DNA from: Planctomycetota bacterium
GTDB lineage: Bacteria; Planctomycetota; GCA-002687715; CAIWVZ01
Length of the DNA: 64,000 nt
NCBI GenBank assembly: GCA_044222185.1
Contig: JBGANV010000001.1
Span: forward strand, 352,001 to 416,000
Direction: 5' to 3'
Shown here: positions 15,872 to 44,453 of the stretch, piece after piece
How positions within the stretch are numbered: position 1 is the first letter of the stretch
How the letters are laid out: the number at the start of each line of letters is the position of its first letter
Position numbers and translations under genes: made by a program
Notes under the pieces: generated by a model
The model's database searches: none
The model's input: only the letters and a program-made list of their open reading frames with translations
What the model was told of the DNA's origin: nothing

Positions 15872-15961
15872 GGAGAGGTGCCGGAGTGGTCGAACGGGCC
15901 GGTTTCGAAAACCGGTGTGCGGGCAACCGTACCTAGGGTTCGAATCCCTACCTCTCCGCCA
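15872..15961 (+). tRNA. tRNA-Ser(CGA)
   Basis: Acceptor stem GGAGAGG/CCTCTCC, G73, encoded CCA; anticodon arm CCGGT-TTCGAAA-ACCGG; long variable arm; T-loop TTCGAAT. Confidence 0.95.
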
Positions 15962-16036: not shown

Positions 16037-16123
16037 GGAGAGGTGTCAGAGTGGCCGAATGAGCGCGCTTGGAAAGCGCGTATACGGGCAACCGTATCGG
16101 GGGTTCGAATCCCCCCCTCTCCG
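16037..16123 (+). tRNA. tRNA-Ser(GGA)
   Basis: Acceptor stem GGAGAGG/CCTCTCC-G; anticodon arm CGCGC-TTGGAAA-GCGCG; long variable arm; CCA not encoded. Confidence 0.95.
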
Positions 16124-42365: not shown

Positions 42366-43292
42366 CTACTGGAAGGTGACCGAGAGGCGGTTCGAGACCT
42401 CCGTCGCCGTGAAGCTCGCATCGGCGGTGATCGCCGCGAAATGGATCGTCAGTCCCGCGAGCGGGGCGTAGCTGGGGATGGAGATCGTCGCGGTCGCCTG
42501 CCCGGCCGCGTTGAGCACGCTGAAGATGTTGGCGAACACCTGCGGGTTCTGGAGTGCGACGTAGGTCAACCCCGTGTTGATGTCGCACTGCAGGTCGAAT
42601 GACCCGCCGAAGTTCACGGTCTGCGTCGACTCGGAGACGGCGATCAAGTAGAGCTCGCCCGGATGCGTGGGAGCGCTGAGCGAGAGCGTCTGCACGGTGC
42701 CGTTGGGCCACGTCGTCGTCGCACTGGACAGGCTCGCCTGGAACATCTGGGCTCGCGCCGTGTAGATGTAGTCGCCGTCGGGCAGGAAGTTCTGGTTGGC
42801 CTGGTTTCCAGCTGCGTAGAACGTCACCGGACCCGGTGAGAGCGTCCCCGGGGCGACCCACGCCATCTGCCAGTTCGACTGGCTGACCCCCGCGAGCGTG
42901 TGCTCGTGGTGGAAGGTGCTCGCAAAGGAGTCCTGGGTGATCCCGGGCTGGATGACCTGCCAGCTGCCTGCCGGGTTGCCTGCGCCATCACGGGCCGTGA
43001 TCTCGAAGCCGTGACGGGGGCTCGTCGATCCCCCGAATCCGACCGTGATCGTGTTCGTCGAGCCGGGCACGACCGTCGTCGGCGCCCAGACGGAGAACGT
43101 GGCCGTGCCGGTGTTGAGGCCGTAGGTCGTATGGCACGTCGTGCAGTTCCCCTCGCCCGGCGCGTCCGTGAAGTACGCGGGCGGGCCGTTGCTCAACGCG
43201 GCCGAGGGGCGCGCGGTGCTCGCCAGGAAGACGCTGACGGAGCCGATGGCGATGAGGGCTGCGAGTGCCTGGCGGGAAAGCGACGTTTTCAT
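42366..43292 (-). CDS. Exported Reeler-like (choice-of-anchor V-like) protein with a CxxCH motif and a C-terminal domain
   Basis: Signal peptide; SNGPPAYFTDAPGEGNCTTCH, GFEITA, WVAP..GPVTFYAAGNQAN..GDYIY; tail LAGLTIHFAA..VSNRLSVTFQ. Confidence 0.8.
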   Translation of the reverse strand: MKTSLSRQALAALIAIGSVSVFLASTARPSAALSNGPPAYFTDAPGEGNCTTCHTTYGLNTGTATFSVWAPTTVVPGSTNTITVGFGGSTSPRHGFEITARDGAGNPAGSWQVIQPGITQDSFASTFHHEHTLAGVSQSNWQMAWVAPGTLSPGPVTFYAAGNQANQNFLPDGDYIYTARAQMFQASLSSATTTWPNGTVQTLSLSAPTHPGELYLIAVSESTQTVNFGGSFDLQCDINTGLTYVALQNPQVFANIFSVLNAAGQATATISIPSYAPLAGLTIHFAAITADASFTATEVSNRLSVTFQ

Positions 43293-43484
43293 GGGTGTTT
43301 TGAGGGGGGAGGTGAGCTCTCTCGGACGCCGCGGAGTCTATCACCGGTGCCCGGCGGGCCCGGTACCGCTGCAAAACCCCCACGACCGCGGCAGTCCTGA
43401 TACGATCCCGCCGGACCAACGGACGACCGGCGGCGATGGACCCAGGGTGGGTCCGGGCGCCCGTGTCGCCACAAGGAGACCGAG

Positions 43485-44453
43485 ATGCAATTCGCGACCA
43501 GGACGTTTCTTGCCGCGGCGGTGGCCTCGACCCTCGCCGTCGCGCAGATCCAGGTCGGCGCGCGTTGGCCGGCGGCAGAGTTGACGGGATTCACCCAGAC
43601 GGGTGCCACGTCGACCGGAGACCTCGCCGGGCGCACCGTCCTCTACGAGTTCTTCGCCTACTGGTGAGGCCCCTGCGGGTCGGCCGTTCCGCACCTGAAC
43701 GAGCTCCACGAGAAGCTCGCGGCGGAAGGGTTGACAGTCGTTGGCGTGACCAACGAAGCAAAGGGCGTGACGGACAAGTGGGTGGCGGACAAGGGCGCGA
43801 AGTACGCGTATGCGTACGACGCCGGCGGCAAGTTGATGCGCGCGTGCGGCGTGAGGGGCATTCCCCATTCGGTCGTCGTCGACCCGACGGGGAAGGTCGT
43901 CTACTCCGGCAGCCCGGGCGGGCTCAGCGAGGAGATGGTCCGAGGCTTCCTCGGCGGAGCGCTGAAAAAGCCGCTCTGGGAACTCCCCAAGTCGTTCTCC
44001 AAGGTCCGCGCGGCCGTCGTCAAGGGCGACTACGCCGCCGCGATCCGCGAGGGCGAGGCGCTCGCCCAGCAGAAAGACCCACCGGCTGAAGCGGCGGCGA
44101 TCGTCGATTCGCTGAAGAGCATGGTCACCGGCGCGGTCAAGGGTGCCGGCGAGATGGAAGCGGCCGGTGACGTTCTGGGTGCCAAGCGCGAGTACGACCG
44201 GATCCTGAAATCGGCCAAGGGGCTACCCGAGGAGGAAGCGTGCAGGGCCCGCCTCGCTGCGATCGCAGGCGATGCGGCCGTGCAGAAGTCGCTCAAGGCG
44301 CAGCTAGAACTCGAGAAGATCGAGGAGCTTCCGGGGAAGAGCAAGAAGGACGCAGAGGCGCGCAAGGTCGCCCTCGAAGCCTTCTCGAAGAAGCACCCGG
44401 ACGACTTCGCGGGAAAGCGTGCGCGCGAGCTTCTGAACCCAAAGGGCGAGTGA
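43485..44453 (+). CDS. Probable exported TlpA/thioredoxin-like selenoprotein (UxxC; TGA at 43665-43667 read as Sec)
   Basis: SD AAGGAG; signal peptide; ...GRTVLYEFFAYW-TGA-GPCGSAVPHLNELHE...VVGVT...GIPHSVVVDPTGKV in one frame joins track ORFs 43485..43667 and 43731..44453. Confidence 0.82.
43667..43696 (+). promoter_or_regulatory. Candidate bacterial SECIS hairpin
   Basis: UGCGGG(43674-79) pairs with UCCGCA(43688-93); U.U mismatch, C-G pair, then apical loop GGCC starting 15 nt after UGA; possible lower AGG/CCU pairing. Confidence 0.5.

Follow-up and report, generated by a model that had tools for sequence, protein, structure and literature searches.

The DNA analysed is a stretch of 64,000 nucleotides (the window) from contig JBGANV010000001.1 of a Planctomycetota bacterium (assembly GCA_044222185.1), and the subject of this report is one gene within it, at 43485-44453 on the forward strand. 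In the open reading frame (ORF) list made under translation table 11, this gene appears as two pieces, one of 60 residues that ends in ...FFAYW and one of 240. Translation of the whole interval revealed only one internal stop, the TGA at 43665-43667, corresponding to residue 61. Its context is FFAYW-U-GPC, where U stands for selenocysteine (Sec), followed in the same frame by GSAVPHLNEL and, further on, GIPH. An earlier note, made from the letters of this DNA alone, had placed a single in-frame TGA at the attacking Cys of a WCxxC motif, with the frame open beyond it and a strong Shine-Dalgarno sequence ahead. Both points held: Pfam domains align across the stop, and AAGGAG lies 6 nt before the ATG. 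The locus is strongly supported as a genuine, intact selenoprotein gene, the internal UGA of which would be decoded as Sec.

Decoding as Sec was supported by three independent lines of evidence, namely Sec machinery in a genome where TGA is a normal stop, conservation of the TGA, and alternation of the TGA with Cys codons. A protein search of 60 related genomes was performed, and the best 20 loci were compared. A single TGA in the same column, within F-[FI]-x-x-[WG]-U-[GPT]-P-C, was present in 18 of them; the remaining two loci belong to the same taxonomic family and have YFTTGDQQC at this position. Metagenome contigs were searched with a degenerate DNA pattern over the codons of F-A-[YF]-W-TGA-G-P-C, which matched 118 contig stretches. 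Eighty were fetched, and 75 of these were orthologues with TGA in the column. Past the TGA the frame remained open for 251-273 codons up to a stop in 54 of the 75, the remaining 21 running off the contig, and the closing stop was again TGA in 41 of the 54. Five fetched loci were dropped, L139 with no similarity and four other short thioredoxin-like genes (L130, L131, L133 and L173). These four carry the exact codon pattern with only 104-124 codons after the TGA, and are probably separate single-domain Sec families.

Cys was found at the Sec column in full-length orthologues, as WCQPC in L042 and as WCGPC in L043 and L044. Among the best 150 hits of a library profile search (see below), 13 were full-length proteins, of which eight exhibited CxxC, one CxxS and four a degenerate motif, placing Cys at the U61 column in 9 of the 13. 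One pattern used to scan genome contigs was back-translated from C and was able to detect Cys and Asp forms only. TGA was the majority state of the family, with Cys orthologues at the same column, and was not unique to this assembly. Invariant residues flank the column in an alignment of 18 sequences, with G49 and E55 before it, and C64 (of U61-G-P-C64) and P127 after it. In several orthologues the redox motif is lost and the two-domain architecture kept (L027, L028, L040, L041 and L045; P0047, P0115, P0122 and P0141), for example as YFTTGDQQC with Asp at the Sec column. These may be redox-dead members with another role.

Sequencing error at the TGA is excluded: in activated-sludge data of an independent study, one contig spans the TGA (43512-43856) with 0 differences. 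A metatranscriptome contig (run X8) covers 43662-43932, also without difference, plus 44136-44310, and provides only a hint of expression.

The genome (7.08 Mb in 16 contigs, 93.8 % complete, in which the window is C1:352001-416000) was searched for the Sec machinery, and all four components were found above their cut-offs. The protein genes, judged by curated cut-offs, were selA (487.3 bits, C1:1631186), selB (330.4 bits, C1:529551) and selD (370.6 bits, C14:427704-428624, locus L001). The tRNA-Sec gene (74.7 bits, C1:1632625) lies directly after selA and was also called by ARAGORN as tRNA-SeC with anticodon TCA. As the earlier note had stated, no sel gene lies within the 64-kb window. The selD gene itself contains one in-frame TGA (SPGGG-U-ACK). 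Of 3,474 open frames in the genome with at least 500 codons, 2,865 end in TGA. A general reassignment of TGA is excluded, since TGA is the main stop genome-wide and also ends this very gene; the internal TGA therefore needs local recoding. Two further matches to the tRNA-Sec model, at 15872-15957 (41.2 bits) and 16037-16122 (34.9 bits) of the window, or C1:367872-367957 and C1:368037-368122 in genome coordinates, were below the gathering score of 47 and are probably ordinary long-arm tRNAs.

The N-terminus of the product has one Arg, then FLAAAVASTLAVA and AVA-Q, and looks like a Sec-type (secretory) signal. A hydrophobic N-terminal segment with an AxA-like site was present in all 18 aligned homologues, and residues 1-18 had predicted local distance difference test (pLDDT) values below 50 in an AlphaFold2 model built with 18 homologues. 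These features suggest a cleaved signal peptide and an exported product. The model as a whole had a pLDDT of 91.8 and a predicted template modelling score of 0.85, and comprised a thioredoxin fold followed by eight helices. Residues 23-143, a segment that spans the TGA, matched Pfam Redoxin (4.3e-18, 66 bits, cut-off 26.6) and AhpC-TSA (2.1e-17, 63.6 bits, cut-off 26). The top Foldseek hits for this domain were 4nmu, ResA 1st9 and DsbE 3gl3, with a target TM of about 0.8. VIA gave Z scores of 19.0 for DsbE 3gl3 (root mean square deviation [rmsd] 2.0 A over 135 residues), 17.8 for ResA, 15.0 for CcmG and 14.4 for TlpA. By analogy with such proteins, P127 of the GIPH loop would adopt the cis conformation. 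The earlier description of a signal peptide leading into a TlpA-like fold was borne out by Pfam and structure as regards the fold, and by inspection only as regards the signal peptide. A DsbD_TM/CcdA-type gene was found elsewhere in the genome (93.1 bits); a DsbD/CcdA-type membrane protein is the usual electron donor of such reductases.

The C-terminal helical domain, when folded alone by AlphaFold2 with 67 sequences, reached a pLDDT of 95.4. It had no match in Pfam, and none among Foldseek matches to the Protein Data Bank at E <= 0.001, the best being BamD at E 0.19. The best VIA match had a Z of 6.2 over 46-50 residues of tetratricopeptide repeat (TPR) proteins, which is below the level meaningful for helical repeats. 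From the model, the domain appears TPR-like. The C-terminal part of NCBIfam NF041382 was matched by 10 of the 67 domains (best E 1.7e-6; the window protein, E 7.4e-4), and the module is therefore common to another curated selenoprotein family. A long planctomycete protein at L099:1939-4080 has the reverse domain order, its helical repeats preceding a thioredoxin domain that carries WCKPC.

Downstream of the UGA, a distal hairpin at 43687-43727 was the best candidate for a selenocysteine insertion sequence (SECIS). In the fold of 43686-43728 it was both the minimum free energy and the centroid structure (-15.2 kcal/mol, z -1.72), and a long hairpin at about +21 to +66 after the UGA was present in most orthologues. 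A synonymous-codon test was applied to 68 orthologous genes, 40 versions of each 36-nt window being generated with synonymous codons taken from the same gene. The strongest structure bias of the whole gene was observed for the two windows that begin at +24 and +27 (mean z -1.43 and -1.38), where 63 % and 57 % of genes, respectively, were below z -1; the other windows had mean z values of +0.40 to -0.89. For the 17 pairs of the distal hairpin in 81 distinct sequences, 67.1 % of cells were paired compared to 36-48 % in slid registers, and two-sided changes were seen in 50 cells, whereas shuffles averaged 36.5. The covariation score of 0.174 was reached by 0 of 500 shuffles, which averaged 0.152, with slid registers at 0.07-0.10. 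The fixed six-pair helix from +36 to +55, taken alone, gave mixed pairing on 76 sequences, with one pair formed in 34 of 76. A search of Rfam at E <= 10 gave no family match for the region and one spurious snoRNA hit. The distal hairpin, about 22-62 nt past the UGA, is the likely, though putative, SECIS.

A different hairpin, just past the UGA and with a G-first apical loop, had been put forward in the earlier note. A proximal stem of this sort can be drawn (UGCGGG/UCCGCA; inner GGCC; loop UCGGCCGU); it includes the UGA in its lower stem, has its apex at about +16 to +23, and forms its pairs entirely between conserved codons. It was paired in 79 % of cells in 80 orthologues compared to 35-51 % in slid registers, yet 321 of 500 column shuffles reached the same level. 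The proximal stem was rejected as the SECIS because it pairs no better than column shuffles. Proximal windows had a synonymous mean z of about 0 in the 68 genes, the window from -3 was the most stable 36-nt window in the coding body, and the fold of the 61 nt directly 3' of the UGA was no better than shuffles (z +0.85).

Hairpins were also observed behind other in-frame TGA codons of the genome. The selD gene has one of 8 bp at +29 to +47 after its TGA, and one of the two-domain Sec paralogues has its own at +30 to +47. In four small Sec paralogues a GGUC loop closes a stem of 7 bp (+27 to +44); their sequences are near-identical there and hence not independent. The GGUC-loop hairpin was found in none of the ten Cys-form paralogues of the genome. 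Present in four of the five short TlpA-like Sec genes, this stem looks like a textbook-type bacterial SECIS.

The relatives of the protein are titled Planctomycetota in their records. Of 301 genomes sampled from the phylum and searched with the C-terminal domain alone, 24 gave a match at E <= 1e-5. In 20 of these 24 the open frame is 259-269 aa, and therefore the stop sits at the position of the Sec column. A profile search of the C-terminal domain against 1.84 billion library representatives found 1,931 at E <= 0.001, 576 at <= 1e-10 and 95 at <= 1e-30. Among the best 150, 137 were shorter than 300 residues and started past the active site, some possibly cut by contig ends; about nine in ten of the best representatives thus look cut at the Sec codon. 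A word-indexed database search gave 21 hits, all unnamed or named 'hypothetical protein'. Twenty were 199-268 aa long and covered 59-79 % of the query, in agreement with the expectation that annotation pipelines would split or shorten the gene, and the remaining one was a 321-aa relative with 29 % identity. The gene belongs to a large planctomycete family that is held in public databases almost only as truncated hypothetical proteins.

Nine TlpA-like genes of the same genome have TGA at the first active-site position and ten have TGC or TGT. The two-domain architecture is found in four of the nine, which include the gene described here. With short and two-domain TlpA-like Sec genes plus selD, the genome looks selenoprotein-rich. 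The neighbours of the gene encode a Reeler-domain protein with a CTTCH motif, a PKD-domain protein, an OPT transporter and an SDR protein. When these four neighbours were compared with the orthologous loci (L021-L044 and L103-L182), the flanks of which extend only about 1-3 kb, there were 0 tblastn hits. The features are listed in Table 1.

Table 1. Features of the selenoprotein gene (window positions), its divergent neighbour, and TGA-bearing TlpA-like paralogues (contig:positions)
Feature	Position	Strand	Description
Shine-Dalgarno-like AAGGAG	43473..43478	+	Read from sequence; 6-nt spacer to ATG at 43485
Complete selenoprotein gene	43485..44453	+	322 sense codons counting U61, plus terminal TGA; orthologues colinear end to end
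Putative Sec-type signal peptide	43485..43544	+	Residues 1-20; cleavage predicted after AVA, by inspection
DsbE/ResA/TlpA-like thioredoxin-fold domain	43551..43955	+	Residues ~23-157; Pfam, Foldseek, VIA
In-frame TGA, predicted selenocysteine U61	43665..43667	+	First residue of U-G-P-C redox motif, 43665-43676
Best SECIS candidate hairpin	43687..43727	+	Lower stem 43687-43692/43722-43727; upper stem 43700-43705/43714-43719; loop CCACGAGA, 43706-43713
Proline of GIPH loop, P127	43863..43865	+	Invariant in 18-sequence alignment A1; presumed cis-Pro facing active site
Conserved C-terminal helical domain	43962..44450	+	Residues 160-322; 8 helices; TPR-like in model
Terminal TGA stop of same gene	44451..44453	+	TGA is a normal stop in the genome
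Divergent upstream neighbour	42366-43292	-	308 residues; exported-looking; Reeler domain E 1.8e-5; CTTCH (CxxCH-like) motif near N-terminus
Two-domain paralogue, thioredoxin + same helical domain	C4:240557-241558	+	YFAYW-U-GPC; one in-frame TGA; signal-peptide-like N-terminus
Two-domain paralogue, thioredoxin + same helical domain	C1:1681889-1682881	-	FFMYW-U-PPC; one in-frame TGA; signal-peptide-like N-terminus
Two-domain paralogue, thioredoxin + same helical domain	C1:644396-645373	+	WWGNH-U-GPC; one in-frame TGA; signal-peptide-like N-terminus
Short TlpA-like gene, TGA at first active-site position	C12:29206-29622	-	
Short TlpA-like gene, TGA at first active-site position	C14:22003-22263	-	
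Short TlpA-like gene, TGA at first active-site position	C7:47156-47578	+	
Short TlpA-like gene, TGA at first active-site position	C5:71112-71366	+	
Short TlpA-like gene, TGA at first active-site position	C8:166997-167440	+	

The gene very probably encodes one exported, Sec-dependent thiol-disulfide oxidoreductase of 322 residues and of the TlpA/ResA/DsbE type. In the postulated mechanism, the internal UGA would be read as Sec by means of the SelA, SelB, SelD and tRNA-Sec of the genome, SelB probably being recruited by the mRNA hairpin at 43687-43727. The second UGA, at 44451, lacks such a hairpin context and would lead to termination. The product would be exported via its N-terminal signal peptide and act in the periplasm, presumably in the reducing direction. 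The selenolate of U61 in W-U-G-P-C would attack a substrate disulfide or an oxidised cysteine, and C64 would resolve the mixed selenenyl-sulfide. Electrons to restore the reduced enzyme would most likely come from a membrane carrier of the CcdA/DsbD type, and the TPR-like C-terminal domain would most likely recruit a substrate or partner protein. A 322-aa periplasmic or secreted Sec-dependent oxidoreductase had been proposed in the earlier note; the gene, the Sec column, the machinery and the fold are supported, and for export and Sec insertion we infer the same.

Several observations weigh against parts of this reading. In the gene's own sequence the hairpin at 43687-43727 was only modestly better than shuffles, as 14 of 200 folded as well, and its synonymous z was -1.14, with 18 % of shuffles as good. 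In the covariation test on the distal hairpin, kinship alone can beat the shuffles without any structure; the upper-stem pair of A37 with position 52 was formed in only 34 of 81 sequences, and RNAalifold over the full orthologue set gave no consensus structure. The Cys or degenerate orthologues (n=5) varied in z at this hairpin position, from 0.59 to -1.61, and are an uninformative control. The G/U features found in the SECIS loop of E. coli fdhF are absent from CCACGAGA, and the apex, about 38 nt after the UGA, lies at the far edge of the range of bacterial SECIS models. With regard to expression, the metatranscriptome contig begins 3 nt before the TGA and provides no bridging, and RNA libraries can hold DNA. 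As to function, the curated NCBIfam cut-offs were not reached for ResA (NF002854, 60.3 against 170), DsbE (TIGR00385, 44 against 123.15) or TlpA (NF047696, 35 against 230), and the protein appears from its sequence to be like these families and a member of none. No conserved neighbour hints at a substrate within flanks of about 1-3 kb. Some orthologues have lost the redox motif and retained the helical domain, and the function of the family may be not purely redox.

The reading that departs furthest from a selenoprotein is that the TGA is a real stop, produced by a nonsense mutation, pseudogene formation or assembly error, in which case the locus would yield a stub of 60 residues and, at most, a C-terminal fragment made separately. 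The gene callers agree with such a stop, TGA is a normal stop in this genome, all but one of the 21 database hits are short (199-268 aa, matching 59-79 % of the query), and 137 of the best 150 representatives are under 300 aa. Against these stand the recurrence of the TGA between conserved flanks in most loci (18 of 20 from genomes, 75 of 80 from metagenomes), an independent assembly with the same base and a full Sec machinery; moreover, the stop would cut the thioredoxin fold exactly at the catalytic residue. A real stop is considered extremely improbable. The UGA could also be read through mainly without Sec, by a near-cognate Cys or Trp tRNA or a suppressor, in which case the active site would have no selenolate. 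Low-level read-through of UGA by Trp or Cys is known in bacteria, the evidence for a SECIS in the gene itself is modest, and Sec decoding has been argued here from sequence data. However, a dedicated tRNA-Sec, selA, selB and selD are present, the UGA aligns with the catalytic Cys, a classic Sec position, synonymous sites past the UGA are biased towards structure across the family, and the UGA ending the same gene is not read through. Read-through of this kind is very unlikely, if slightly less so than a real stop.

A further possibility is that the selenoprotein carries out other chemistry, as a peroxiredoxin-like peroxidase or as a redox-regulated holdase that combines thioredoxin and TPR-like domains, as does the cytoplasmic CnoX/YbbN. 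The AhpC-TSA score of 63.6 bits is nearly that of Redoxin (66), peroxiredoxins appear in the structural list with Z of 13-15, and a review table contains a 'Prx-like thiol:disulfide oxidoreductase' entry with PF00578 and UxxC (PMC13188914). In addition, a TPR-like C-terminal domain would suit client binding, and the redox-dead orthologues keep this domain. In contrast, W-U-G-P-C is a thioredoxin-type dithiol motif and not the peroxidatic TxxC or PxxxTxxC, and the top structural matches are all reductases of the DsbE/ResA/TlpA type. CnoX was absent among the structural matches listed, which carries no weight as evidence of absence. Other chemistry is an unlikely alternative to the Sec-dependent thiol-disulfide oxidoreductase proposed here.

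In a broader and speculative view, several planctomycete lineages would rely on this family for their main periplasmic reductase, Se-dependent by default. With its thioredoxin-type selenolate joined to a TPR-like domain for client binding, it could be an extracytoplasmic 'chaperedoxin' with a far SECIS (apex at about 38 nt). This is conceivable but doubtful. If true, redox processes in the envelope of these bacteria from wastewater and soil would depend partly on selenium supply, in a way that is invisible to current annotation. The nine TGA-bearing TlpA-like genes suggest that the envelope redox enzymes of this genome may need selenium, as may those of relatives in activated sludge, soil and sea water. 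The family has been missed by curated naming models, and public sets hold mostly truncated 'hypothetical proteins'. The 80-plus orthologues provide a data set from which a planctomycete SECIS could be defined and an annotation-correcting family model built.

TlpA-like UxxC selenoproteins are known as a kind, having been predicted in surveys of 2005-2016. A survey of the Sargasso Sea in 2005 described a 'thiol-disulfide isomerase-like protein', a TlpA-like UxxC selenoprotein (PMC1088965). Table 1 of a 2026 review of prokaryotic selenoproteomes contains four relevant families, the first of which dates from the Sargasso Sea survey. The table has TlpA-like (cd02966) UxxC entries, and two of the four families are 'Prx-like thiol:disulfide oxidoreductase, PF00578, UxxC' and 'Thiol:disulfide interchange protein, UxxC' (PMC13188914). 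Like the protein described here, these are thioredoxin-fold oxidoreductases with Sec in place of the first Cys of CxxC, predicted from a conserved TGA and Cys homologues. They differ, on comparison by description, in that the descriptions name no C-terminal helical domain and no planctomycetes. The covered portions of this literature on UxxC selenoproteins mention neither a two-domain planctomycete family nor its SECIS, and the family may already be among the reference accessions of the review (PMC13188914). The covered portions of PMC12013277, PMC13326102 and PMC5029168 contained nothing relevant on TlpA, thiol/disulfide or Planctomyc.

With regard to recoding, the distal hairpin resembles the E. 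coli fdhF-type SECIS in that it would form inside the coding region, on the 3' side of the UGA, and is presumably a binding site for SelB. In fdhF the apex lies about 20 nt after the UGA and the loop is of the GGUC type, whereas here the apex is at about 38 nt and the loop is CCACGAGA.

Two curated families of selenoproteins are related in part. NF041382 (VPGUxxT thioredoxin-like (seleno)protein type 1) shares C-terminal positions, about 120, that resemble the helical domain, but the whole-protein score was 17.8-18.9 bits against a cut-off of 350 and the active-site motif is another. It was not found in the genome, and control genomes gave no match either. NF041054 (ResA-like WAxxUGC) is a ResA-like selenoprotein of similar length (354 positions) whose thioredoxin domain aligns at 45 bits. 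This is below the cut-off of 300, and its Sec lies in WAxxUGC rather than W-U-GPC.

The closest structural relatives are ResA, DsbE (CcmG) and TlpA (1st9, 3gl3, 1kng and 1jfu). In common with the present protein they have the fold (Z 14.4-19.0, rmsd 2.0-2.6 A, 128-135 residues), the proline loop and a dithiol motif at the same site, together with an export or anchor segment at the N-terminus, which is putative here. The active-site motifs are CEPC in ResA, CVPC in TlpA and CPTC in CcmG. The present protein differs in having Sec for Cys in a thioredoxin-like motif, WUGPC, and an extra helical domain of 165 residues, and its gene does not lie beside cytochrome-maturation or Sco/Cox genes. Knowledge of selenoprotein biology is unchanged by this; UxxC thioredoxin-fold selenoproteins, the exported type included, have been predicted since 2005. 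What is new here is an uncurated and systematically truncated member family of a known kind, which is less novel than the earlier note had implied.

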